The notes beneath the pieces were generated by a model, which was not told the origin of the DNA, made no database searches, and was given only the letters and a program-made list of their open reading frames with translations. The position numbers and the translations under genes were made by a program. Below are positions 1,524 through 64,000 of a DNA stretch of 64,000 bases, piece after piece. Origin of the DNA: Escherichia coli (GTDB lineage Bacteria > Pseudomonadota > Gammaproteobacteria > Enterobacterales > Enterobacteriaceae); NCBI RefSeq assembly GCF_013315695.1, contig NZ_CP054356.1; one strand, 5' to 3'. Numbering within the stretch: position 1 is the stretch's first letter; each line of letters opens with the position of its first letter.

Positions 1524-2255
1524 TCAGTCTCCTGTTCCCATAACTTCTTTAATAAATGCCTTTTCTGGAGTTGTTTCATTATTGGATTGAATAAAATCAC
1601 TCATATCAGAATAACGATTTATACTATTTTTTGAAAGCATATAGAAGGGGATTTTATCTCTTGTTAATTCATCAAAAATATGAGTTGAGAAAAATACCGT
1701 TTTCCCGTCAGCGGTGATCTTATTTATCAGTTCCCATAACATCATTCTGTACTGAATATCAATGCCTACAGTTGGTTCATCCAGTAAAAATAAACGGGCA
1801 TTTTTGCAAAGCGTTAGCATCAAAGATATGATAAGCCAACGCTTCTCTCCATAACTTACCGTGTAAGTCCTTTTACGTCTTATTTTATCATAGCGAATGA
1901 AAAAATTATCATTCCATTTATGATTAAGCTCTGTCCATGCCTGTTTTTTAGTTAACTTATTGAAGCAGCAAATCAAATCAAGAACCTCCTCATTCCTTAG
2001 TGTACCTGAAAGATTTATGACTTGAGGTAGACTTACTAATTCTCCACCAGAGAAATTTCGCTTGAGGGTCCCTTCATAATTACTGACTCCGCCCCTGATA
2101 AGGTTAAAAAGAGTGGTCTTCCCGGCTCCATTTTCTCCAAGCAGACCTATCAACTCTCCCTGCTCAATCTTAAGCGACAGATTATTGAAAACAGGGGGTA
2201 AATTTACTTTATATGAAAAGCTCAGAGAGTTGATTTCTAAAAGAGGTATGGTCAT
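1524..2255 (-). CDS. mcbF: Microcin B17 export/immunity ABC transporter ATP-binding protein McbF
   Basis: Walker A GENGAGKTT, ABC signature-like SGGE, Walker B LFLLDEP; position in operon. Confidence 0.9.
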   Translation of the reverse strand: MTIPLLEINSLSFSYKVNLPPVFNNLSLKIEQGELIGLLGENGAGKTTLFNLIRGGVSNYEGTLKRNFSGGELVSLPQVINLSGTLRNEEVLDLICCFNKLTKKQAWTELNHKWNDNFFIRYDKIRRKRTYTVSYGEKRWLIISLMLTLCKNARLFLLDEPTVGIDIQYRMMLWELINKITADGKTVFFSTHIFDELTRDKIPFYMLSKNSINRYSDMSDFIQSNNETTPEKAFIKEVMGTGD

Positions 2256-2977
2256 TGAGAACTCCAGACTGGCTCAGTTTTGAAGGTTAGTGCTGAAATA
2301 ATACTTATGATTAACATTATACTATAGAAAAATATCGTCATCAGAGACAACTCCTGGTCTGACTGGAGTATTGTAGAATAGATGGCGATAGGATTAACCT
2401 GATTTATCCAGTAAACGATCCCCTCATTATATTTTAATGATACAATTCCTGATACCATACAGACAGTTATTAATACAGAATAGATAGTGCTGGCTGTTTG
2501 GAATGTGACTCTGAACGATGCCATGAAAGTGAGTGAAACCATCATAAATGCATTTATGTATATCGATTTTAAAATAATCATTACTATTTGATAATCTGGA
2601 CTTGCCTGGAATCCTGTTAGTACGACTAAAATGAAAAAAAACACATACAAAATAGACATGATAAGTGAGGCTATTAATTGAGAACGAATAAATAATAGTC
2701 GACCATCCATATTATGCACGAAGGTAGCAATAAAACCACTTTCTCTTCTTCCGACCAGATACAGACAGTAATTAAACAGAACAACAGAAAAAGAAATGTA
2801 GCCTACAAACCATGATATTTGTTTTCCGAGCCATGCTGTATCACCATAATGAAGTTCAATTTCATTGAAATGAAGGAAAAAGAACAACACTGTAGGTGAC
2901 ATAATTGTCCATATTAAGCTGAAAGGGGTTCTGATTTGTTCCATCAGAAAAATTATCGCCATTTTTAATGTAACCAT
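2252..2977 (-). CDS. mcbE: Microcin B17 export/immunity ABC transporter permease McbE
   Basis: 241 aa highly hydrophobic multi-TM protein, translationally coupled to mcbF. Confidence 0.85.
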   Translation of the reverse strand: MVTLKMAIIFLMEQIRTPFSLIWTIMSPTVLFFFLHFNEIELHYGDTAWLGKQISWFVGYISFSVVLFNYCLYLVGRRESGFIATFVHNMDGRLLFIRSQLIASLIMSILYVFFFILVVLTGFQASPDYQIVMIILKSIYINAFMMVSLTFMASFRVTFQTASTIYSVLITVCMVSGIVSLKYNEGIVYWINQVNPIAIYSTILQSDQELSLMTIFFYSIMLIISIISALTFKTEPVWSSQ

Positions 2978-7485: not shown

Positions 7486-7839
7486 TTAGTTTATTAACTT
7501 CATCGCATTCTTTTTTGTCTCCTCATCACTTTTTTGCTCCGATTGTGAAGAGGACTGAATGATTGTTGAAGAATTTAAATCGGCCATCTCTTTTGGAAAT
7601 AGCGATCTCAATATATTCACGATATCTGAAAATGTGGTTTCTTTCGTCAGCAGTTCACATAAAAGGAAAGGGGCCCTGGGATCTTGTCTGTATAAGGCCA
7701 GACCTGCCGTCAGTGCAGCCCGGTTAAGGCGGCTGCGTTCCCCTTGCGGGATACTGTCCAGTGTATCACAAACAATTTTATCTGTTTGATTTACATCTGG
7801 ATTTAGCTTAAAGGCAATGGTTCTGCGCTTGTCCATCAT
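7486..7839 (-). CDS. parR: Plasmid partition adaptor ParR (StbB)
   Basis: 117 aa [47 protein letters not shown].. matches recalled R1/R100 ParR. Confidence 0.92.
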   Translation of the reverse strand: MMDKRRTIAFKLNPDVNQTDKIVCDTLDSIPQGERSRLNRAALTAGLALYRQDPRAPFLLCELLTKETTFSDIVNILRSLFPKEMADLNSSTIIQSSSQSEQKSDEETKKNAMKLIN

Positions 7840-8801
7840 TAATTACCTATGAGATACATACCGTTAACTAAATCATATTGAGAGTTATTGGTTTTAAAAA
7901 AACGTTCATCACGAATCTGTGTGTGTTTTTTTACTGCATCGCATATTAATTCTGCGCCACCACCTATAACCATAACATGAGTATAACCAGAAAATTCATT
8001 GAGTGTATTTAATACACGTTGCTCAAGTTTACGAAGTGCTTCATTCATTGCTTCGGTGACTATTGATATTTTATTCTCATCATTAATTCGTTGCTTCAGA
8101 TAGTTATTATCTTTTCTGTGAATAATTATATCGTCAGCAAGATAGCTACTTCCTTTTGTTCTCGCAAGAGAAAGGGCATCTTTTACTGCAGATGTGACCA
8201 GAGATACACCAAGAGATGAGTCTCCGTATATTTTACTGATTCCCGATAATTTCCCCATTACCTGAGAAATATCTAATGTGGTGCCCCCGAGATCTATAAT
8301 TAATAAAGAATCTAACTCATCCAGTTCTTGTAGAACTTCATAACCTGCCGGTATAGATTCAGGCATGACTTTTACATCTTTTATTGTGAATGTATCCCCA
8401 CCATTTAATGTAATTTTTTTCCGGAAGTTTGCTTTCTTACGCTCAATATTTTCCGTATTGGGTTGGTTATTCCTGTCGTAATACTCTGTCAGAGGAAGTG
8501 TGCAAACAATATCCACTTCGCTTACCGGCAGACCACTGGTCAGTAAGGCGTGGTGCACCGCAACGACATTAACGTCGCTGTATTGCCATGCGATATTGGT
8601 TGTGACTACAGCATCCGGGCTGATTGGATCAAATGAATACTGTTCGCCGTTCAGTGTGTAGTTAAAGACCTTTTTATCACCAAAAGAAACTGCCCACTCG
8701 CGTTTGAAGCTGTTCGGGCTAATGTGCTGTTTAATTGTTCCGTCGCTTTCCTGCCACTGTAGTTTGATGTTTGTTGAACCGTCATCAATGAATACCAACA
8801 T
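7839..8801 (-). CDS. parM: Plasmid partition actin-like ATPase ParM (StbA)
   Basis: 320 aa [25 protein letters not shown].. matches recalled R1 ParM. Confidence 0.95.
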
Positions 8802-15025: not shown

Positions 15026-15256
15026 TCTTTAAAAATCAGGATTTATTTCAGGCTCCGGCAATACGCATTTATGTGTTCTGTCAGTCATCCGGCTGGCAGG
15101 TAATGAAAACGCAGGAACAGAAGGAGGAAAACACCGGAAAGCGTCAGATGCAGATATGAAAAAAAGCAGGTCAGGGACCTGCTTAATCCACGCCGTAAGA
15201 ATTGTGCGACCAATTTTGACGGCATTGTTAACCAATTTGTCATAAGGAATCCATTT

Positions 15257-15487
15257 ATGACTGTAAGCATTGTTTCACCTTCCGCAGCGGCTGTAAAGCC
15301 CCGCCGTCATCCCCGTTTCAGACGCGAAGACATCCCCGCGCCGGAACTTGACCCCGTGCTGAAAGCCTTCGGGCGACACATTGCCCGGAGTTTTCGCCGG
15401 GGGCGTGGTGTACACATCCCCGCCATGAAAAACACGGCCTTCGGGCAGGTGCTCCGCACACTCGAACTGAAACGCGCTTTTAACTGA
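15257..15487 (+). CDS. Hypothetical small basic protein (76 aa, Arg-rich)
   Basis: RBS AAGGAA; first gene after family B copy 1; RRHPRFRRED..RSFRRGRG. Confidence 0.5.
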   Translation: MTVSIVSPSAAAVKPRRHPRFRREDIPAPELDPVLKAFGRHIARSFRRGRGVHIPAMKNTAFGQVLRTLELKRAFN

Positions 15488-21252: not shown

Positions 21253-21687
21253 ATGAAAACTGAACTGACCCTGAATGTATTACAGACCATGAGCGCACAG
21301 GAATATGAAGATATCCGGGCTGCCGGAAGTGATGAACGTCGTGAACTCACACATGCCGTGATGCGGGAGCTGGATGCGCCGGATAACTGGACGATGAACG
21401 GCGAGTATGGCAGCGAGTTCGGCGGCTTTTTCCCCGTCCAGGTCCGTTTCACGCCTGCCCACGAACGTTTTCACCTGGCGTTATGTTCACCGGGCGATGT
21501 CTCTCAGGTCTGGGTGCTGGTTCTGGTGAATGCCGGTGGTGAGCCGTTTGCGGTGGTTCAGGTACAGCGGCGGTTTGCACCGGAAGCCGTCAGCCATTCA
21601 CTGGCACTGGCGGCGTCACTGGACGCGCAGGGGTACAGCGTCAGTGACATCATCCATATCCTGATGGCGGAAGGAGGTCAGGCATGA
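21253..21687 (+). CDS. psiB: Plasmid SOS inhibition protein PsiB
   Basis: [40 protein letters not shown].. matches recalled PsiB; ATG at 21253 (track starts at GTG 21250). Confidence 0.95.
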
Positions 21688-22403
21688 GCGCACGTTCACA
21701 GGCACTGGTTCCCCTCAGCGCAGAGCAACAGGCCGCATGGCGGGCGGTGGCGGAGACAGAAAAACGCCGCCACCAGGGAAACACGCTGGCGGAATATCCG
21801 TATGCGGGGGCGTTTTTCCGCTGTCTGAACGGAAGCCGCAGGATATCGCTGTCTGACCTGCGATTTTTCATGCCGTCCCTGACCGCAGAAGAACTGCGCG
21901 GCAACCGTTCTCAGTGGCTGTATGCCGTCGATGTGCTGATTGAAACTCAGGGCGAGGTCTGCCTTCTTCCCCTTCCCGGCGATGCAGCAGAGCGGCTGTT
22001 CCCGTCGGTGCGGTTCCGTGTCAGGGAGCGCAGTCGCCACAAATCCGCACTGGTCATGCAAAAGTACAGCCGCCAGCAGGCGAGGGAGGCAGAGCAGAAA
22101 GCCCGTGCGTACCAGGCGCTGGTCGCTCAGGCTGAAATCGAACTGGCATTCCATTCGCCGGAAACAGTCGGAAGCTGGCATGCCCGCTGGAGTGACCGGG
22201 TGGCAGAGCATGACCTGGAAACCCTGTTCTGGCAGTGGGGTGAGCGTTTTCCGTCACTGGCCGGAATGGAACGCTGGCAGTGGCAGGATATGCCGTTCTG
22301 GCAGGTTATTGCGGAAGCCAGTCTTGCAGCAAGAGAGGCCGGTCACGCTGTCCGTGAGATGGAGCGGTGGATGGTGCCGAACAAACTCCGGGAGGCGGCG
22401 TGA
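21684..22403 (+). CDS. psiA: Plasmid SOS inhibition protein PsiA
   Basis: 239 aa immediately downstream of and overlapping psiB stop. Confidence 0.85.
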
Positions 22404-22559
22404 TGCGGCAACAATCGCACAGATTACCCGTAAACAGCCTGAATGAGCGGGTTATTTTCAGGAAAAGTGAGTGTGGTCAGCGTGCAGGTATATGGGCTAT
22501 GATGTGCCCGGCGCTTGAGGCTTTCTGCCTCATGACGTGAAGGTGGTTTGTTACCGTGT

Positions 22560-22640
22560 TGTGTGGCAGAAAGAAGATAGCCCCGTAGTAAGTTAATTTT
22601 CATTAACCACCACGAGGCATCCCTATGTCTAGTCCACATC
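22560..22640 (-). ncRNA. Putative sok/flmB-type antisense RNA (approximate)
   Basis: Inferred from hok/mok architecture: antisense to mok leader; boundaries not determined. Confidence 0.3.
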
Positions 22641-22837
22641 AGGATAGCCTCTTACCGCGCTTTGCGCAAGGAGAAGAAGGCCATGAAACTACCACGAAGT
22701 TCCCTTGTCTGGTGTGTGTTGATCGTGTGTCTCACACTGTTGATATTCACTTATCTGACACGAAAATCGCTGTGCGAGATTCGTTACAGAGACGGACACA
22801 GGGAGGTGGCGGCTTTCATGGCTTACGAATCCGGTAA
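22625..22837 (+). CDS. mok: mok-like modulator-of-killing reading frame overlapping hok
   Basis: 70-aa ORF overlapping the hok frame, as in hok/sok and flm loci. Confidence 0.6.
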
Positions 22838-22841
22838 GTAG
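22683..22841 (+). CDS. hok: Hok/Gef-family membrane toxin (FlmA/Hok-like), 52 aa; below ORF-track size cut-off
   Basis: Translation [52 protein letters not shown] matches recalled Hok; TAG stop at 22839-22841. Confidence 0.92.
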
Positions 22842-22850
22842 CAACCTGGA

Positions 22851-22872
22851 GGCGGGCGCAGGCCCGCCTTTT
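22851..22872 (+). terminator. Rho-independent terminator of hok mRNA
   Basis: GGCGGGCGCAGGCCCGCC hairpin followed by TTTT. Confidence 0.7.
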
Positions 22873-23190
22873 CAGGGCTGATGCTGGTCTGACTGCACTG
22901 AAGCGCCTTTATAAAGGGGCTGCTGGTTCGCCGGTGGCCCCTTTCTCCTTGCTGGCATTGTACGGGCATGAACAACCAGACTGCCAGGAAGGCCGTTTCC
23001 CTCCGGGAACGGGGATGAACGTGCGCCTGCGGCGCCCGTTCTTTTCCCCCGCCTTCTCTGTTTATGACTTACCAGAAATCACATCACCTTCCCTTTGATT
23101 ATTCTCTTTTTCCTCCTGCTCTGACTCTGATTACTGCTCTGACTCTGATTACTGCTGCCCTGATTATTGTCTGTTTTGTTGTTCTCCTGC

Positions 23191-26584: not shown

Positions 26585-26692
26585 AAGAAATTTGACTTCG
26601 TTCAAATATCAGAGTTTTTATGATTTAAAAAGGTGACAGTACGAAAGATAATTAGTATATTAATTACGTGGTTAATGCCACGTTAAAATTTG

Positions 26693-26775
26693 AATTTGAA
26701 AATCGCCGATGCAGGGAGTTCTCTCCTCCCCGCATCGACTGTCCATAGAATCCTTTGTGAGGAGGTTCCTATGTA
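26693..26775 (-). ncRNA. finP: FinP antisense RNA (approximate)
   Basis: Antisense to traJ leader/RBS; two stem-loops (e.g. CGATGCAGGGAG..CTCCCCGCATCG) and minus-strand U-tail (plus GAATTTGAAAATC). Confidence 0.6.
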
Positions 26776-27460
26776 TCCGATGGATCGTATTCAACAAAAA
26801 CATGCTCGTCAAATAGATCTGCTGGAAAATCTGACGGCAGTTATTCAGGATTATCCAAATCCAGCCTGTATCAGGGACGAAACTGGAAAATTTATTTTTT
26901 GCAATACGCTGTTTCATGAGTCATTTCTTACACAAGATCAAAGTGCTGAAAAATGGCTTCTGTCGCAGAGAGATTTTTATGAATTGATCTCTGTCACAGA
27001 GATGGAAGCATACAGGAATGAGCATACGCATCTTAATCTTGTAGAGGATGTTTTTATTCAGAACAGATTCTGGACAATATCTGTCCAGTCATTTCTTAAT
27101 GGACACAGAAATATTATTCTGTGGCAATTTTATGATGCTGCTCATGTTCGTCATAAAGACAGTTATAATCAAAAAACGATTGTCAGTGATGATATCAGAA
27201 ATATAATCAGAAGAATGAGTGATGATTCTTCTGTATCATCATATGTAAATGATGTATTTTACTTATATAGCACCGGAATCAGTCATAATGCTATAGCAAG
27301 AATATTAAACATATCCATCTCCACATCAAAGAAACACGCATCTCTGATATGCGACTACTTCTCTGTTTCTAATAAAGATGAGTTAATCATCTTACTCTAC
27401 AATAAAAAGTTTATTCATTATTTATACGAGAAGGCTATGTGTATCATAAATATGCGTTAA
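26771..27460 (+). CDS. traJ: Transfer operon activator TraJ
   Basis: ATG with RBS GAGGAGG; MYPMDRIQQKHARQIDLLENL..; track ORF extends upstream to 26690. Confidence 0.85.
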   Translation: MYPMDRIQQKHARQIDLLENLTAVIQDYPNPACIRDETGKFIFCNTLFHESFLTQDQSAEKWLLSQRDFYELISVTEMEAYRNEHTHLNLVEDVFIQNRFWTISVQSFLNGHRNIILWQFYDAAHVRHKDSYNQKTIVSDDIRNIIRRMSDDSSVSSYVNDVFYLYSTGISHNAIARILNISISTSKKHASLICDYFSVSNKDELIILLYNKKFIHYLYEKAMCIINMR

Positions 27461-46209: not shown

Positions 46210-49028
46210 ATGAAGTCTATGTGATTGCCGGTGGTGAGTGGTTAAGCAATAACCTGAACGCCATTGCCGCCTTTATGGGGACCCGGACGTGGGATTCCAT
46301 CGAAAAAATTGCGCTCACATTGTCTGTTCTCGCGGTGGCCGTGATGTGGGTACAGCGGCACAACGTGATGGATTTGCTGGGCTGGGTGGCCGTGTTTGTG
46401 CTTATCAGCCTGCTGGTTAATGTCCGTACATCGGTGCAGATTATTGATAACAGTGACCTGGTCAAAGTTCACCGGGTGGATAATGTGCCGGTCGGACTGG
46501 CGATGCCACTTTCACTGACGACCCGTATCGGGCATGCAATGGTGGCCAGTTACGAGATGATATTCACCCAGCCGGACAGTGTCACCTACAGCAAAACGGG
46601 GATGCTGTTCGGCGCAGAACTGGTATCAAAAAGCACCGACTTTTTGTCCCGCAATCCGGAAATCGCCAATCTTTTTCAGGATTATGTGCAGAACTGTGTG
46701 ATGGGGGATATTTACCTGAACCACAAATACACGCTGGAGGAGCTGATGGCCTCCGCTGATCCCTACACGCTGATTTTTTCCCGCCCCAGTCCGCTGCGGG
46801 GCGTTTACGACAGCAATAATAATTTCGTGACCTGTAAGGACGCGTCGGTTTCGCTGAAAGACAAGCTGAATCTGGACACACAGAGTGGCGGAAAAACCTG
46901 GCATTATTATGCCCAGCAGTTATTTGGTGGTCGCCCTGATCCGAACCTGTTGTTCAGTACGCTGATTGGCGACAGTTACAGTTACTTCTATGGCTCAAGT
47001 AAATCAGCCAGCCAGATCATCCGCCAGAATGTCACCATCAATGCGCTGAAGGAGGGGATCACCAGTTATGCCGCACGTAATGGTGATTCGGCCAGCCTGG
47101 TGAATCTGGCCACCACATCATCGATGGAGAAGCAACGTCTGGCACATGTCTCCATCGGTCATGTGGCGATGCGGACACTGCCCATGACGCAGACCATCCT
47201 GACGGGGATCGCCATCGGTATTTTCCCGCTCCTGGTACTGGCGGCTGTCTTCAACAAACTGACGCTGTCCGTCCTGAAAGGCTATGTGTTTGCCCTGATG
47301 TGGTTGCAGTCATGGCCAATGTTGTACGCCATTCTGAACAGTGCCATGACATTTTATGCGAAGCAGAACGGTGCACCGGTGGTGCTCTCAGAAATTTCAC
47401 AGATACAGCTGAAATACTCCGATCTGGCTTCCACTGCCGGGTATCTTTCCATGATGATCCCGCCATTATCCTGGATGATGGTCAGGGGACTCGGGGCCGG
47501 ATTTTCCAGTGTGTACAGCCATTTCGCTTCCTCTGCTATCAGCCCGACCGCCAGTGCGGCAGGCAGTGTGGTTGACGGTAATTACTCCTACGGCAACATG
47601 CAGACGGAAAACGTGAACGGCTTCAGCTGGAGCACCAACAGCACCACGTCGTTTGGTCAGATGATGTACCAGACCGGCAGTGGCGCAACTGCCACACAGA
47701 CCCGTGACGGTAATATGGTGATGGATGCGAGCGGGGCGATGTCCCGGTTACCGGTTGGTATCAATGCAACGCGTCAGATTGCAGCGGCACAACAGGAAAT
47801 GGCCCGGGAGGCGTCGAACAGAGCAGAAAGCGCCCTGCATGGGTTCAGCAGCAGTATTGCCAGTGCCTGGAACTCGCTCAGCCAGTTTGGTTCTAACCGG
47901 GGGAGCAGTGATTCTGTCACAGGTGGTGCTGACAGCACGATGAGCGCACAGGACTCCATGATGGCCAGCCGTATGCGCAGTGCAGTGGAAAGCTATGCGA
48001 AGGCGCATAATATCAGTAATGAGCAGGCGACTCAGGAACTGGCATCCAGAAGTACGAGAACTTCTGCCGGGATGTATGGAGATGCTCATGCTGAATGGGG
48101 GGTTAAACCTAAAATTCTTGGTGTTGGTGGAGGATTAGGCGTTAGAGGTGGTGGTCGGGCTGGTATTGATTGGGAAGATAATGATGCGCATACGGCAAGT
48201 AGTAATACTCAGTCGAGCCATAATGCTCGTCATGATATCGATGCCAGAGCTACACAAGACTTTAAAGAGGCCAGCGATTACTTTACCAGTCGCAAGGTCA
48301 GTGAGTCCGGCAGCCATACTGACAATAATGCTGATTCCCGTGTGGATCAGTTGTCTGCAGCCCTGAATTCAGCGAAGCAGAGTTACGACCAGTACACGAC
48401 GAATATGACCCGCAGCCATGAATATGCTGAAATGGCATCCCGTACTGAAAGCATGAGTGGGCAGATGAGTGAAGACCTGTCGCAACAGTTTGCACAGTAT
48501 GTAATGAAACACGCGCCACAGGATGCAGAAGCTATTCTGACAAACACCAGTTCACCGGAGATTGCAGAACGTCGTCGGGCGATGGCCTGGTCTTTTGTGC
48601 AGGAACAGGTACAGCCTGGTGTTGATAATGCCTGGCGGGAATCCCGTGGTGATATTGGTAAAGGAATGGAGAGCGTACCTTCGGGTGGTGGCAGTCAGGA
48701 TATTATTGCTGACCATCAGGGACATCAGGCCATTATTGAGCAAAGAACGCAGGACAGTAATATCCGTAATGATGTAAAACATCAGGTTGATAATATGGTC
48801 ACAGAATATAAAGGGAATATAGGTGATACTCAGAACAGCGTACGTGGCGAGGAAAATATTGTAAGAGGACAGTATTCTGAACTGCAGAATCACCATAAAA
48901 CAGAGGCATTATCTCAGAATAATAAATATAATGAAGAAAAGTCGGCTCAGGAAAGAATGCCCGGGGCTGACAGTCCACAGGAACTTATGAAAAGGGCAAA
49001 GGAATATCAGGATAAGTATAAGCAATAA
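46206..49028 (+). CDS. traG: Mating-pair stabilisation / entry-exclusion protein TraG
   Basis: 940 aa, N-terminal multi-TM domain and large periplasmic domain. Confidence 0.92.
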   Translation: MNEVYVIAGGEWLSNNLNAIAAFMGTRTWDSIEKIALTLSVLAVAVMWVQRHNVMDLLGWVAVFVLISLLVNVRTSVQIIDNSDLVKVHRVDNVPVGLAMPLSLTTRIGHAMVASYEMIFTQPDSVTYSKTGMLFGAELVSKSTDFLSRNPEIANLFQDYVQNCVMGDIYLNHKYTLEELMASADPYTLIFSRPSPLRGVYDSNNNFVTCKDASVSLKDKLNLDTQSGGKTWHYYAQQLFGGRPDPNLLFSTLIGDSYSYFYGSSKSASQIIRQNVTINALKEGITSYAARNGDSASLVNLATTSSMEKQRLAHVSIGHVAMRTLPMTQTILTGIAIGIFPLLVLAAVFNKLTLSVLKGYVFALMWLQSWPMLYAILNSAMTFYAKQNGAPVVLSEISQIQLKYSDLASTAGYLSMMIPPLSWMMVRGLGAGFSSVYSHFASSAISPTASAAGSVVDGNYSYGNMQTENVNGFSWSTNSTTSFGQMMYQTGSGATATQTRDGNMVMDASGAMSRLPVGINATRQIAAAQQEMAREASNRAESALHGFSSSIASAWNSLSQFGSNRGSSDSVTGGADSTMSAQDSMMASRMRSAVESYAKAHNISNEQATQELASRSTRTSAGMYGDAHAEWGVKPKILGVGGGLGVRGGGRAGIDWEDNDAHTASSNTQSSHNARHDIDARATQDFKEASDYFTSRKVSESGSHTDNNADSRVDQLSAALNSAKQSYDQYTTNMTRSHEYAEMASRTESMSGQMSEDLSQQFAQYVMKHAPQDAEAILTNTSSPEIAERRRAMAWSFVQEQVQPGVDNAWRESRGDIGKGMESVPSGGGSQDIIADHQGHQAIIEQRTQDSNIRNDVKHQVDNMVTEYKGNIGDTQNSVRGEENIVRGQYSELQNHHKTEALSQNNKYNEEKSAQERMPGADSPQELMKRAKEYQDKYKQ

Positions 49029-53525: not shown

Positions 53526-56500
53526 TGTTGAGTTTCAGCGTTGTTAAATCGGCAGGCAGTGCCGGAAACTATTACACCGACAAGGATAATTACTATGTGC
53601 TGGGCAGCATGGGAGAACGCTGGGCTGGTCAGGGGGCTGAACAGCTTGGGCTGCAGGGCAGCGTCGATAAGGATGTTTTTACCCGTCTTCTGGAGGGCAG
53701 GCTGCCGGACGGGGCGGATTTAAGCCGCATGCAGGATGGCAGTAATAAGCATCGTCCCGGCTACGACCTGACCTTCTCCGCCCCCAAAAGTGTCTCCATG
53801 ATGGCCATGCTCGGGGGGGATAAACGTCTTATTGATGCACATAACCAGGCCGTGGATTTTGCTGTCCGTCAGGTGGAGGCGCTGGCTTCCACACGGGTGA
53901 TGACGGACGGACAGTCAGAAACGGTGCTGACCGGTAATCTGGTGATGGCACTGTTTAACCATGACACCAGTCGCGATCAGGACCCACAGTTACACACGCA
54001 TGTAGTGGTGGCTAATGTCACGCAGCATAACGGCGAGTGGAAGACACTGAGCAGTGACAAAGTGGGGAAAACCGGATTTTCCGAGAACGTGCTAGCGAAC
54101 CGGATTGCGTTCGGGAAAATATATCAGAGTGAGTTACGTCAGCGCGTTGAGGCGCTGGGTTATGAAACCGAAGTGGTCGGTAAGCACGGTATGTGGGAGA
54201 TGCCGGGCGTACCGGTGGAGGCCTTTTCCAGTCGTTCACAGGCTATCAGGGAGGCCGTCGGTGAAGACGCCTCGCTGAAATCCCGGGATGTGGCGGCACT
54301 GGATACGCGAAAATCCAAACAGCACGTCGATCCGGAAATCAGAATGGCTGAATGGATGCAGACGCTGAAGGAAACCGGGTTCGACATCCGGGCATATCGT
54401 GACGCGGCGGATCAGCGTGCGGAGATCCGCACGCAGGCGCCCGGGCCTGCTTCACAGGACGGGCCGGATGTGCAGCAGGCGGTGACACAGGCGATTGCCG
54501 GATTAAGTGAACGAAAAGTGCAGTTCACGTATACGGACGTGCTGGCCAGGACGGTCGGCATACTGCCGCCGGAAAATGGTGTGATTGAACGGGCACGCGC
54601 CGGTATCGATGAGGCCATCAGCCGTGAGCAGCTTATCCCCCTCGACCGTGAGAAGGGGCTGTTCACATCAGGAATTCATGTGCTCGATGAGCTGTCCGTC
54701 CGGGCACTCAGTCGTGACATCATGAAACAGAACCGGGTGACCGTACATCCGGAGAAAAGTGTCCCCCGGACGGCTGGTTACAGCGATGCGGTCAGTGTTC
54801 TGGCACAGGACCGTCCGTCGCTGGCCATTGTGTCCGGGCAGGGCGGTGCAGCCGGGCAGCGTGAGCGGGTGGCTGAACTGGTCATGATGGCCCGGGAGCA
54901 GGGGCGGGAGGTGCAGATTATCGCTGCTGACCGTCGCTCGCAGATGAACCTGAAGCAGGATGAACGGCTGTCCGGTGAGCTGATAACCGGACGTCGTCAG
55001 CTGCAGGAGGGCATGGTCTTCACGCCGGGCAGTACTGTTATCGTCGACCAGGGCGAAAAACTCTCCCTGAAAGAGACGTTAACCCTGCTGGACGGTGCCG
55101 CACGTCATAACGTACAGGTCCTGATAACCGACAGCGGGCAGCGAACCGGTACAGGCAGTGCGCTGATGGCCATGAAGGATACCGGGGTGAACACGTATCG
55201 CTGGCAGGGCGGAGAACAGCGACCGGCAACCATCATCAGTGAACCGGACCGGAATGTCCGCTATGACCGGCTGGCCGGAGATTTTGCGGCCAGCGTGAAA
55301 GCCGGAGAAGAGAGCGTGGCACAGGTCAGCGGGGTACGGGAACAGGCCATACTGACACAGGCCATTCGCAGTGAGCTGAAAACACAGGGCGTGCTCGGAC
55401 ACCCGGAGGTGACCATGACCGCCCTGTCACCGGTCTGGCTGGACAGCCGGAGCCGTTATCTGCGGGATATGTACCGACCGGGGATGGTGATGGAGCAGTG
55501 GAACCCGGAGACACGCAGTCATGACCGCTATGTTATCGACCGGGTGACGGCGCAGAGTCACAGCCTGACCCTGCGGGATGCGCAGGGCGAAACGCAGGTG
55601 GTGCGTATTTCCTCCCTGGACAGCAGCTGGTCGCTGTTCCGGCCGGAAAAAATGCCGGTGGCAGACGGCGAGCGACTGAGGGTGACAGGGAAAATTCCCG
55701 GACTCCGCGTCTCCGGCGGTGACCGCCTGCAGGTGGCATCCGTCAGTGAAGATGCGATGACGGTTGTTGTGCCGGGGCGGGCTGAACCGGCCACCCTGCC
55801 TGTGGCTGATTCACCGTTCACGGCACTGAAGCTGGAGAACGGCTGGGTGGAAACGCCCGGGCATTCCGTCAGTGACAGTGCGACGGTGTTTGCCTCCGTC
55901 ACACAGATGGCAATGGACAACGCCACCCTGAACGGTCTGGCCCGCAGCGGTCGTGATGTCCGGCTGTATTCCTCACTGGATGAAACCCGTACTGCGGAAA
56001 AACTTGCCCGCCATCCCTCCTTTACGGTGGTTTCTGAGCAGATAAAGGCGCGGGCCGGTGAGACATCGCTGGAAACCGCTATCAGTCTGCAGAAAACCGG
56101 GCTGCACACGCCGGCACAGCAGGCCATTCATCTGGCCCTTCCTGTGCTGGAAAGTAAAAACCTGGCCTTCAGCATGGTGGACCTGCTGACAGAGGCGAAG
56201 TCGTTTGCTGCAGAAGGAACCGGTTTTACTGAACTGGGAGGGGAAATCAATGCGCAGATAAAACGCGGTGACTTACTGTATGTGGATGTGGCAAAAGGCT
56301 ATGGCACAGGCCTGCTGGTTTCCCGTGCGTCGTATGAGGCAGAAAAAAGTATTCTTCGCCATATTCTCGAAGGTAAGGAGGCGGTCACGCCGCTGATGGA
56401 GAGAGTACCCGGCGAACTCATGGAGACGTTAACGTCGGGACAGCGTGCCGCCACCCGTATGATACTGGAAACGTCCGACCGTTTCACGGTGGTACAGGGT

Positions 56501-60528: not shown

Positions 60529-61269
60529 AAATAACCCCCGTCGCGGAGCTCCGGGGGATCAGGCTTATATGGCAGATCGTTATTATTATAGTGGTGTAAG
60601 AAGGAGTTGCCCTGTCTTTCAAACGGACATCACAGAGTTAACATATTTCACATCCCGGGTAAGCCAGCAGGGATAAAAAATGTGATGAATTTCAAGAAGC
60701 AGAAGGTGACAGTAGCATGCATAACAGTACGGTTATGTCCGGTGAATCTGACAGACAGCCGGGCTGTATTCGCGGCAGGATAAAGAAAAACCGGGAGATG
60801 ACTCTCCCGGTCCGTCTTATCGCTAATCCCCTGAGCAGGGCATGTATGACTTATCTATGACCGTTATATTCAGCGCCACATCCGGTAGCCTGCGATATAA
60901 CACAGTTATCCTATCAGTAAGAGCAGGTATGATGAATACACGGAGATTAAAAATATAATCTCCGTCACATGTTACCCCCGGAAACCGGTAACGCCGTCAC
61001 GGGAAATACGTGACAGAAAAAGCAGCCTCCGTTACTCCAGGTATCAGAAGGCTGAATAATGCATGAGACTTTGTTTCTTATGTGTCTGGTCAGGCTGGCT
61101 GACCAGCGTTTTTAGTAACACATAGCCATATGTGTATTAAGCCACCTCATCTTATTTTGTCGAATTGATCACAATTCAACGGTTTATTTTTGGCGTGATA
61201 CGTGAGCCGTTATTCATCCCGGCATGGAATTCATGCAATCACGAAAAGTAATCAGTGACGGAGAGTAAA

Positions 61270-62370: not shown

Positions 62371-62808
62371 ATGAAATATGATGATGTGTCAGAATTGATG
62401 ATTAAATGTGAACACAACATTCTTATTGTTGGTAATACTTACTCCCGAGTTGATAATTTTTTTAAGGGGTATTCTGTACCAGATTCTAAATATTATGATT
62501 TCACTCAGATTAACAGTGATTCAGATGCAGAGAGAAATGATCATGCCGTCTCCTTTATCAGGGATGCAATGAATAGTGAAGAGCATATAATTATTTTTAA
62601 TTGTGTTGGGTGGCCTGATTTAGGTGGTGGATCAGCAGTATCGCAGTTTGCAATGATGGCCAGAAAATTTGGTAAACAACTTATTGTCGCTGTAAGTGAA
62701 AAGGATGCCATAAAATTAAAAGACAACTTTAATATTATTGGAACGTTGTCATATGGTAAAGAAAATTTTATTGCCATGAGCCATACGAAAAGCGAGTTCT
62801 GTAGTTAA
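62371..62808 (+). CDS. Hypothetical protein (145 aa), intact paralog of the upstream frameshifted gene
   Basis: ORF with conserved ..IIIFNCVGWPDLGGGSAVSQFAMMARKFGKQLIVAV.. core; AT-rich. Confidence 0.6.
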   Translation: MKYDDVSELMIKCEHNILIVGNTYSRVDNFFKGYSVPDSKYYDFTQINSDSDAERNDHAVSFIRDAMNSEEHIIIFNCVGWPDLGGGSAVSQFAMMARKFGKQLIVAVSEKDAIKLKDNFNIIGTLSYGKENFIAMSHTKSEFCS

Positions 62809-62950
62809 AAGCGGGAAATGGAGGTAATGGTCAGCAACAGGGAATGTGGTATTATCGCGGCGGGTGTCTGAGCCTTTCTGGTTCAGGCAAGACGCAGGTA
62901 CCAGAAATGCGAAGACCCCACTTGTTAATCCATTAACTCGTGAGGCCTGC

Positions 62951-63010
62951 ATGAAGTACGTAGCACTACTGATTGTAGCCTCTTCCTTGCAGAGAGGTCA
63001 AAGTTTATGA
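62951..63010 (+). CDS. pndC/mok-like leader reading frame (19 aa) translationally coupled to toxin gene
   Basis: ATG 62951; stop TGA overlaps toxin ATG (ATGA); architecture as in pnd/srnB loci. Confidence 0.5.
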   Translation: MKYVALLIVASSLQRGQSL

Positions 63011-63156
63011 CGAAATATACCCTTATCGGGTTGCTCGCCGTGTGCGCCACGGTGTTGTGTTTTTCACTGATATTCAGGGAACGGTTATGTGAGCTGAATA
63101 TTCACAGGGGAAATACAGTGGTGCAGGTAACTCTGGCCTACGAAGCACGGAAGTAA
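63007..63156 (+). CDS. pndA: Hok-family toxin PndA/SrnB-like, 49 aa; below ORF-track size cut-off
   Basis: Translation MTKYTLIGLLAVCATVLCFSLIFRERLCELNIHRGNTVVQVTLAYEARK; matches recalled PndA/SrnB core. Confidence 0.88.
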   Translation: MTKYTLIGLLAVCATVLCFSLIFRERLCELNIHRGNTVVQVTLAYEARK

Positions 63157-63440
63157 GCTGCCGGGCGGGGGCGGAAGTCCCCGCTTTCCGGAAGTGTGGG
63201 GTATTTCAGGGGCAGACACCCGACATGCCAGAAACCGCCGGTCCCGCCCGGGGCCGGCACACAGGTTAAGGCATTTCCTGTTTTTTCAGCCATTTCGCAA
63301 CAAAAATCACATTAAACAACAGTAATCAGACATGATTTGTGCGCCAACACAGATCTTCGTCACAATTCTCAAGTCGCTGATTTCAAAAAACTGTAGTATC
63401 CTCTGCGAAACGATCCCTGTCTGAGAAGAGAGGAGGCGAG

Positions 63441-63698
63441 ATGTCGCAGACAGTAAATGCAGAGACTTCCTCATCGGGAAAAAAACGACCTTACAGAAGG
63501 GGTAATCCTGTTCCTGCGAGAGAACGACAAAAAGCGTCTCTTGCAAGAAGGAGTGCCACTCATAAAGCGTTTCATGCCGTCATTCAGCTTCGACTGAAAG
63601 AAAAGTTAAGTGAGCTTGCTGATGAAGACGGGATCACTCAGGCACAGATGCTTGAGTGGCTGATAGAGTCAGAGGTTAAGCGCAGAAAATCTTTGTGA
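63441..63698 (+). CDS. copB: RepFII copy-number repressor CopB (RepA2)
   Basis: 85 aa [37 protein letters not shown].. resembles recalled CopB/RepA2. Confidence 0.85.
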
Positions 63699-63792
63699 AT
63701 ATTTGCGTTTCTTGCTGTTTCAGTGATGAGATGTTAGATTGCTGATCGTTTTAAGGAATTTTGTGGCTGGCCACGCCGTAAGGTGGCAGGGA

Positions 63793-63885
63793 ACTGGTTC
63801 TGATGTGGATTTACAGGAGCCAGAAAAGCAAAAACCCCGATAATCTTCTTCAACTTTGGCGAGTACGAAAAGATTACCGGGGCCC
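63793..63885 (-). ncRNA. copA: CopA antisense RNA of RepFII replicon (approximate)
   Basis: Target stem-loop on plus strand CCCCGATAATCTTCTTCAACTTTGGCGAGTACGAAAAGATTACCGGGG in repA leader; boundaries approximate. Confidence 0.5.
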
Positions 63886-63933
63886 ACTTAAACCGTATAG
63901 CCAACAATTCAGCTATGCGGGGAGTATAGTTAT

Positions 63934-64000
63934 ATGCCCGGAAAAGTTCAAGACTTCTTTCTGTGCTCGCTCCTTCTGCGCATTGTAAGTGCAGGATGGT
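63934..64000 (+). CDS. tap: RepA leader peptide Tap, 5' part (continues beyond window)
   Basis: ATG 63934; [22 protein letters not shown].. matches recalled R1/R100 tap. Confidence 0.7.

Follow-up and report, generated by a model that had tools for sequence, protein, structure and literature searches.

The locus at about 62828-63286 of the window (the 64,000-nucleotide stretch of Escherichia coli DNA analysed here), adjacent to the replicon, is very probably an intact member of the srnB/srnC type of hok-family type I toxin-antitoxin systems. This assignment draws on homology, gene order, promoters that match the consensus, predicted RNA pairings and their covariation. Neither the family, nor its mechanism, nor the exact sequence of the locus is new, all being present already in the literature and in databases: srnB-srnC of F, flm of F and pndA-pndB of R483 have been described as hok/sok homologues with a consistent arrangement, killing activity and mode of regulation (PMC4147584; bioRxiv 10.1101/2025.08.07.668861).

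The toxin gene and its placement in the hok family

The toxin gene and its ribosome-binding site are as follows.

63007-63156, plus strand: toxin gene, 49 aa, Hok/Gef family, SrnB type, MTKYTLIGLLAVCATVLCFSLIFRERLCELNIHRGNTVVQVTLAYEARK (from Pfam PF01848 and identity with F)
62992-62997, plus strand: toxin Shine-Dalgarno sequence GAGAGG, 9 nt before the ATG (from the sequence)

The encoded peptide matches the Pfam profile HOK_GEF (PF01848) with 36.3 bits against a cut-off of 22 (E 4.1e-9), covering profile positions 2-42 of 42, and has a charged stretch after its hydrophobic N-terminal helix. Residues C13, R24, C28 and G35 (toxin numbering) form invariant columns in a six-sequence alignment of the window toxin, F SrnB, the IncI toxins and Hok.

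Within this family, the protein is identical to that of F at 48 of 49 residues (98%; T5 here, A5 in F), as against only 43-45% identity to the IncI toxins found at the pnd position and 35% to the R1-type Hok encoded elsewhere in the window. The similarity to F extends over the whole unit: from 62832 on, the two loci share ~97% DNA identity, with an alignment that is near-perfect from 62832 to repA2 and gives way to unrelated DNA upstream of 62832, a position that falls within the -35 box of the toxin promoter. Gene order is likewise shared, in that repA2-tap-repA lies downstream of the toxin locus and the toxin gene in the F plasmid record is directly upstream of repA2-tap (RepFIC). Near-identity to F over the entire unit, together with the common position upstream of repA2, places the locus in the srnB subfamily; and because a 98% protein and ~97% DNA match to F stands against 43-45% to the IncI toxins, the type is srnB/srnC and not pnd, and the antisense RNA of this locus should be called SrnC and not PndB. 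The first-pass annotation had matched the 49-aa peptide to PndA/SrnB, a match that a lack of homology to Hok, Pnd and SrnB would have overturned. The PF01848 match (E 4e-9) upholds Hok/Gef membership; the SrnB half of the label is retained and the pnd half, at 43-45% identity, is withdrawn.

The toxin mRNA and its predicted long-range pairing

The features of the toxin mRNA are listed in order of position.

62828-62855, plus strand: toxin promoter, -35 TGGTCA, 16-nt spacer, TG-extended -10 TATTAT (promoter scan, alignment with F)
62862-63286, plus strand: toxin (srnB-type) mRNA (promoter and Rfam start; exact primary 3' end uncertain)
62862-62870, plus strand: tac element, the mRNA 5'-terminal GGGUGUCUG (MFE fold, duplex search, compensatory changes)
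62913-62919, plus strand: ucb-like box AGACCCC, predicted alternative partner of the mRNA 5' end (fold of truncated RNA 62862-63200)
63161-63191, plus strand: GC-rich 3' stem-loop after the toxin stop (folds)
63213-63221, plus strand: fbi element CAGACACCC, complementary to the mRNA 5' end (MFE fold, duplex search)

The promoter scan returned two sites, against ~0.8 expected by chance, and both occupy the positions given by the family model. The plus-strand promoter puts the start of the mRNA at ~62862, the same base on which the match to Rfam RF01794 begins (62862-63017, plus strand; 93.1 bits against a gathering score of 59, full-length model). This Rfam family is named 'sok antitoxin', and it matches the sense strand in every locus tested, i.e., both loci in the window and those in L002, L004, L005, L006 and L009, beginning at the 5' end of the toxin mRNA and extending as far as the toxin ATG. 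Because it lies on the sense strand, the match is evidence that the mRNA leader is homologous, and not a marker of the antitoxin gene; automatic annotation from RF01794 would give the antitoxin the wrong strand and the wrong length, the antisense gene being ~65 nt.

The plus-strand RNA from 62862 to 63288 has a minimum free energy of -178.8 kcal/mol (z -5.2). In this fold the 5'-terminal tac element pairs with fbi, which begins 57 nt after the toxin stop and ends 360 nt from the mRNA 5' end, and in the duplex search pairings as good arose in 8 of 300 shuffled controls. Pairing between the 5' and 3' ends, at a spacing of 359-400 nt, recurs in four subtypes whose sequences differ and are nonetheless complementary:

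srnB (window and F): 5' GGGUGUCUG, 3' CAGACACCC
L005 (intermediate, toxin 61% identical): 5' GGGUGCUUG, 3' CAAGCACCC
hok (window): 5' GGCGCUU, 3' AAGCGCC
IncI pnd-position: 5' GGGCGC, 3' GCGCCC

Complementarity that is kept while the sequences change indicates compensatory change and not merely shared ancestry of sequence, and the tac/fbi fold-back is the defining interaction in the published tac/fbi/ucb/dcb model of hok-family mRNAs (PMC9841398).

Folding of an RNA truncated at its 3' end (62862-63200) predicts a new pairing of the 5' end, with 62913-62919, in agreement with the published tac/ucb switch. By analogy with hok (PMC9841398), the stem-loop at 63161-63191 is a candidate for the hairpin that would shield the 3' end of the mRNA after processing to its active state. 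Neither the full-length nor the truncated RNA gave an MFE fold with the pairing of Shine-Dalgarno sequence and ucb that marks the published closed form, and in both the leader Shine-Dalgarno sequence pairs with a downstream box; we make no claim for the closed-form step for this reason, and it would have to be taken over from the family. The terminator scan found no canonical terminator for the toxin mRNA or for the antisense RNA. Candidate 3' end features of the toxin mRNA are a GC hairpin at 63237-63258 and a T-run at 63281-63286. Another hairpin, at 63036-63054 inside the toxin ORF, was considered as a terminator and is treated as a chance occurrence (~0.9 expected).

The leader frame and the predicted antisense RNA

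Upstream of the toxin, a short leader frame lies beneath a predicted antisense RNA.

62942-62945, plus strand: leader Shine-Dalgarno sequence GAGG (sequence, local folds, Rfam consensus stem)
62951-63010, plus strand: leader (mok-analogous) frame, 19 codons, MKYVALLIVASSLQRGQSL, ATG at -56 from the toxin ATG
62972-63001, minus strand: antisense (SrnC-type) promoter, -35 TTGACC (63001-62996), 18-nt spacer, -10 TACAAT (62977-62972) (promoter scan, 10/12 matches)
62903-62965, minus strand: predicted antisense antitoxin RNA, ~63 nt, start ~62965 (fold and promoter; both ends predicted)

The leader TGA (63008-63010) overlaps the toxin ATG (63007-63009) as ATGA, and the predicted target hairpin joins the leader GAGG to GCCUC (62978-62982). 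A 19-codon frame could, on its own, arise by chance; its significance comes from a start position equivalent to those in F, hok and pnd, and from its location under the predicted antisense RNA. The start relative to the toxin ATG is -56 in the window, -57 in F and -58 in both hok and pnd. The frame nevertheless differs from the canonical forms in its phase and in its length (19 codons with an ATGA end): the F-type leader is in frame with srnB and yields a 68-aa reading in all seven of the other srnB alleles, and the hok and pnd leaders, of 70 and 67 codons, are both in the +1 frame. Thus, the position of the leader start is conserved, yet all three frames occur in the family, which is consistent with the view that in hok it is the translation of the leader that matters and not its product (PMC9841398). 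Our literature search found no account of the srnB leader frame.

The fold of the predicted antisense RNA (-25.1 kcal/mol, z -3.6) leaves ~17 nt at the 5' end (62965-62949) single-stranded, and this tail is complementary to the start codon of the leader and the codons just after it; a hairpin (62948-62913) follows, and the RNA runs out in a U-rich 3' tail near 62903. Its promoter is kept in seven F-type alleles, and the decayed copy L013 differs at 62996, where the antisense -35 becomes the consensus TTGACA. Both features had been anticipated in the first-pass annotation, which described a 19-aa leader whose stop overlaps the toxin ATG and suggested looking for an antisense RNA on the minus strand at ~62890-62965; the leader was recovered exactly as described (ATG at 62951, 19 codons, TGA at 63008-63010), and the predicted promoter (TTGACC-18-TACAAT), the start at ~62965, the hairpin and the tail to ~62903 fit the proposed antisense RNA, under the name SrnC.

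Features that set this allele apart

To compare alleles, we aligned the window locus with seven srnB alleles drawn from diverse plasmids (L002 and L007-L012) and with the decayed copy L013, making nine sequences. The window allele carries a private cluster of changes at 62958-62963, consisting of a 1-nt deletion, T>G and A>G. The 1-nt deletion moves the leader start from -57 to -56, and the in-frame 68-aa reading thereby becomes a 19-codon uORF ending in ATGA. The apical loop of the antisense target hairpin is also altered, from CCUUAACAC in F, which contains a YUNR motif, to CGUAGCAC in the window. The motif is absent from this loop in the window and present in every other locus examined, the unpaired versions being CUUA/UUAA in the F-type alleles, UUUA in L013, UUCG and CUCA in the pnd-position loci, and CUAG in hok. 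YUNR is an accessory kinetic feature and not a criterion of membership in the family; however, because it has been reported to be decisive for rapid Sok binding in hok (PMC6562991) and has been lost here, regulation of this allele may have changed or become weaker. The antisense 5' tail begins with bases other than those of F, at a cost of ~10-12 kcal/mol in heterologous tail pairing, and the remaining ~57 nt of the antisense RNA are fully complementary between the window and F alleles.

The exact 83-nt leader of the window allele occurs in 98 PLSDB records, compared with 173 exact and 2,143 near matches for the F form. Given these 98 exact records, and given that the identical 461 bp around the locus are found in plasmids from several sources, the allele is a genuine, persisting minority form and not an assembly error. 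As judged from the sequence alone, the changes at 62958-62963 may alter kinetics or specificity, or may be simply tolerated. Diversifying selection acting on the antisense target was considered, but we make no general claim for it: the 18 variable transcript sites among eight alleles are spread out, and only the private changes of the window cluster.

Distribution and annotation in public plasmids

The identical 461 bp (100% identity) occur in ~100 PLSDB plasmids, with relatives in 2,814 records; the plasmids that carry the identical segment are 42-212 kb in size, reside in E. coli and Klebsiella, and come from humans, mouse and river water. The toxin CDS is annotated in public RefSeq/GenBank records, and the exact protein is present on at least 1000 public contigs. 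In all 25 of the records listed, the CDS is called 'Hok/Gef family protein' or 'type I toxin-antitoxin system Hok family toxin'. The exact protein also goes by 'protein HokE' in some database entries, a label assigned automatically. The chromosomal hokA-E genes of E. coli belong to the same Pfam family as the window toxin, but the window locus is plasmid-borne and is an orthologue of F srnB, and the chromosomal hok copies have been reported to be mostly inactive for post-segregational killing (bioRxiv 10.1101/2025.08.07.668861).

Several other records bear on annotation of the family. Most annotate the 49-aa form of the toxin, but in L012 (CP057601.1, 344-550) the 68-aa in-frame reading, from the leader ATG through srnB, is annotated as the toxin CDS, and annotation of the start codon across the family is inconsistent. 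L013 (NZ_CP035468.1, 5236-6167) is a decayed srnB copy in which the promoter region and the first ~40 nt of the mRNA have been replaced and a deletion of 2 nt cuts the toxin short at residue 44; it has no Rfam leader match and is still called 'Hok/Gef family protein' in RefSeq. An intermediate member of the hok family occurs in L005 (NZ_CP046026.1, MOBH plasmid pT82A, 1360-1718), where the toxin has 46 aa and 61% identity with that of the window and the tac/fbi pairing is intact; this locus adjoins a mazEF pair, and no ATG- or GTG-initiated leader frame occurs within 90 nt before its toxin. In the IncI plasmids, further type I toxin-antitoxin material is found within 1 kb of the pnd-position locus, at 2312-2453 (plus strand) and 2485-2572 (minus strand) of L004 and at 2110-2197 (minus strand) and 2459-2554 (plus strand) of L006: a second, weaker RF01794 match is present in L004, and AgrB-family antisense matches lie by a DinQ-like toxin (dqlB) in both.

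Comparison with known systems

The closest point of reference is srnB/srnC of F (NC_002483, 2780-3141, by RepFIC repA2), with which the window locus shares its position, promoter, tac/fbi pairing, antisense promoter and 3' stem-loop, and from which it differs in the leader frame, the target-loop YUNR, the antisense 5' tail and the DNA upstream of 62832. The hok/sok/mok system of R1 (flm of F) resembles it in having a ~50-aa toxin, a leader that starts 56-58 nt before the toxin and has a Shine-Dalgarno sequence to itself, a 5'-3' fold-back over ~360-400 nt and the same Rfam leader model. In contrast, its toxin is only 35% identical to that of the window srnB locus, its mok has 70 codons, is read in the +1 frame and overlaps hok throughout, its tac and fbi sequences are different (hence the covariation), its loop YUNR is CUAG, and the hok copy in the window sits in the leading region after psiA and not by the replicon. 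The pndA/pndB/pndC systems of R483 and R16, represented here by the IncI-gamma/K1 plasmids L004 and L006, belong to the same family, with an Rfam leader match of 132 bits, tac/fbi pairing and a YUNR loop, but their toxins are 43-45% identical to that of the window, their leaders have 67 codons starting at -58, and they adjoin trbA or finQ in an IncI backbone.

Plasmid context

The plasmid is F-like and has an IncFII/FIC-type replicon, and the locus occupies the usual place of srnB in it, after the tra region ends and before repA2. The related maintenance and replicon features of the window are the following.

7486-7839, minus strand: ParR/StbB
7839-8801, minus strand: ParM
21684-22403: psiA, leading region (PF06952)
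22509-22908: hok/mok/sok locus of R1 type, directly after psiA
22509-22685, plus strand: second Rfam RF01794 leader match
22625-22837: mok, 70 codons, overlapping hok
22683-22841: second Hok (PF01848, E 1e-21)
63441-63698: repA2/copB (PF10723)
63826-63916: CopA RNA (Rfam)

The initial description of the locus as lying next to the replicon agrees with the start of repA2 at 63441 and with CopA RNA at 63826-63916. It had also credited the plasmid with two hok-family killing loci in addition to parMR, and all of the components were found (the second Hok at 22683-22841 with mok after psiA, ParM and ParR/StbB), with killing by the hok-family loci presumed from homology. The combination of parMR, a leading-region hok/sok and a replicon-side srnB/srnC is the normal arrangement in F-like plasmids.

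The abrupt start of F homology at 62832 makes the toxin-antitoxin and replicon block look like a recombination module with a sharp left edge. Directly upstream is a 145-aa AT-rich ORF (62371-62808, plus strand), which is a 'hypothetical protein' in RefSeq and gave no Pfam or PADLOC match. At the other end of the window, there is a Tn3-family transposase fragment at the start, and the segment 957-6101 (minus strand) is annotated in near-identical plasmids as a complete microcin B17 operon, with a TOMM precursor, McbB, a SagB-type dehydrogenase, YcaO, McbE and McbF for immunity/export, and the pentapeptide-repeat McbG. The other Rfam matches at gathering score are AS-pc01 (15161-15262, minus strand), AS-traG (46925-47010, minus strand), AS-traI (56374-56450, minus strand) and AS-pc02 (60951-61093, minus strand), which are antisense RNAs described from pHK01, and the FinP/traJ 5' UTR pair (26666-26777); all are ordinary for an F-like backbone.

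Discussion

If the locus operates according to the hok/sok paradigm, from which we take the mechanism (reviews; PMC9841398; PMC4147584), a stable toxin mRNA would be made from the promoter at 62828-62855, and the pairing of tac (62862-62870) with fbi (63213-63221) in the full-length transcript would keep it closed and untranslatable. Slow trimming from the 3' end would remove fbi, allowing the 5' end to re-pair with 62913-62919 and exposing the leader start region. Ribosomes finishing the 19-codon leader would then be left at the start codon of the toxin (ATGA) and would thereby turn on synthesis of the 49-aa membrane toxin. So long as the plasmid is present, the unstable antisense RNA of ~63 nt (62965 to 62903, minus strand) would pair over the leader Shine-Dalgarno sequence and start codon, blocking the leader and hence the toxin, and the duplex would be marked for RNase III. 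Upon loss of the plasmid, the antisense RNA would decay first and the toxin would kill the cell. Here, mRNA processing, translational coupling, RNase III cleavage and killing are transferred by analogy from the hok family, and it is by homology that we infer post-segregational killing for the srnB/srnC locus in the window.

Two accounts that deny the identity of the locus carry almost no weight. The pnd label, under which this would be a pndA/pndB/pndC locus of the IncI/IncB kind, had been proposed in the first-pass annotation and draws on the shared Pfam family and overall architecture; but the toxin is only 43-45% identical to the IncI toxins by trbA as opposed to 98% to the F protein, the leader of pnd-position loci has 67 codons and starts at -58 in the +1 frame, and the flanking genes (finO, nuclease, repA2) are of F type and not IncI. 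The toxin identities suffice to refute it, and we regard it as extremely improbable. Small ORFs are certainly plentiful in this region, where 25 of at least 20 aa overlap 62400-64000, and a functionless one might be mistaken for a gene; yet the Pfam and Rfam matches, the synteny, the identity with the F plasmid and the covariation of tac with fbi refute such an origin for the toxin frame, the chance of which we consider negligible.

The remaining alternatives accept that the locus is of srnB/srnC type and concern what its differences from F signify. It is conceivable, though we hold it rather unlikely, that this is a distinct regulatory srnB/srnC allele, with a uORF that acts by termination-reinitiation coupling, a lost U-turn (YUNR) loop and a re-specified antisense tail; if so, it would have changed activation kinetics, or partial immunity to cross-repression by the F-type SrnC of a co-resident or competing plasmid. 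The same changes could instead mark an attenuated or decaying allele, in which the 1-nt deletion abolishes or changes the coupling of leader and toxin, loss of YUNR slows antisense binding, and little plasmid maintenance results. The out-of-frame leader start (-56, against -57 and in frame in 7/7 other srnB alleles), a target loop without the motif that every other locus examined has kept, the minority status of the form (98 records match it exactly, where the F form has 173 such and 2,143 near matches) and the existence of a clearly decayed relative (L013, with its 5' region replaced, its toxin truncated and no Rfam match) all point in this direction. Nonetheless, there is no damage to the toxin ORF, to either promoter or Shine-Dalgarno sequence, or to the tac/fbi pairing, the ATGA overlap is a classic arrangement for translational coupling, work on hok points to the translation and not the product of the leader as what counts (PMC9841398), and the identical allele persists in 42-212 kb plasmids of E. 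coli and Klebsiella from varied sources, such that we view attenuation as unlikely. A further suggestion is that the device is the same but that its main benefit is not segregational stability, lying instead in plasmid-plasmid competition or in abortive infection of phage. Phage exclusion by hok/sok has been reported, three maintenance modules (parMR, the second hok and srnB) are present within one 64-kb stretch, and the antisense 5' tail differs from that of F at a cost of ~10-12 kcal/mol in heterologous pairing; but nothing in the sequence bears on this benefit, and the other ~57 antisense nt are fully complementary between the alleles. Moreover, srnB of F reportedly mediates plasmid maintenance by killing plasmid-free segregants, as the title of the 1991 paper by Nielsen et al. 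has it, and a primary role in competition or phage defense appears improbable to us.

For the srnB/srnC locus identified here, the value of the analysis lies in correct annotation, and in little beyond that: neither toxins of ~50 aa nor the leader frames and antisense RNAs that go with them reach the thresholds of ORF tracks. At the level of the plasmid, three stacked maintenance devices help explain the difficulty of losing such plasmids. For the hok family, the differences in leader frame and in YUNR amount to a small natural experiment on the weight of both features.
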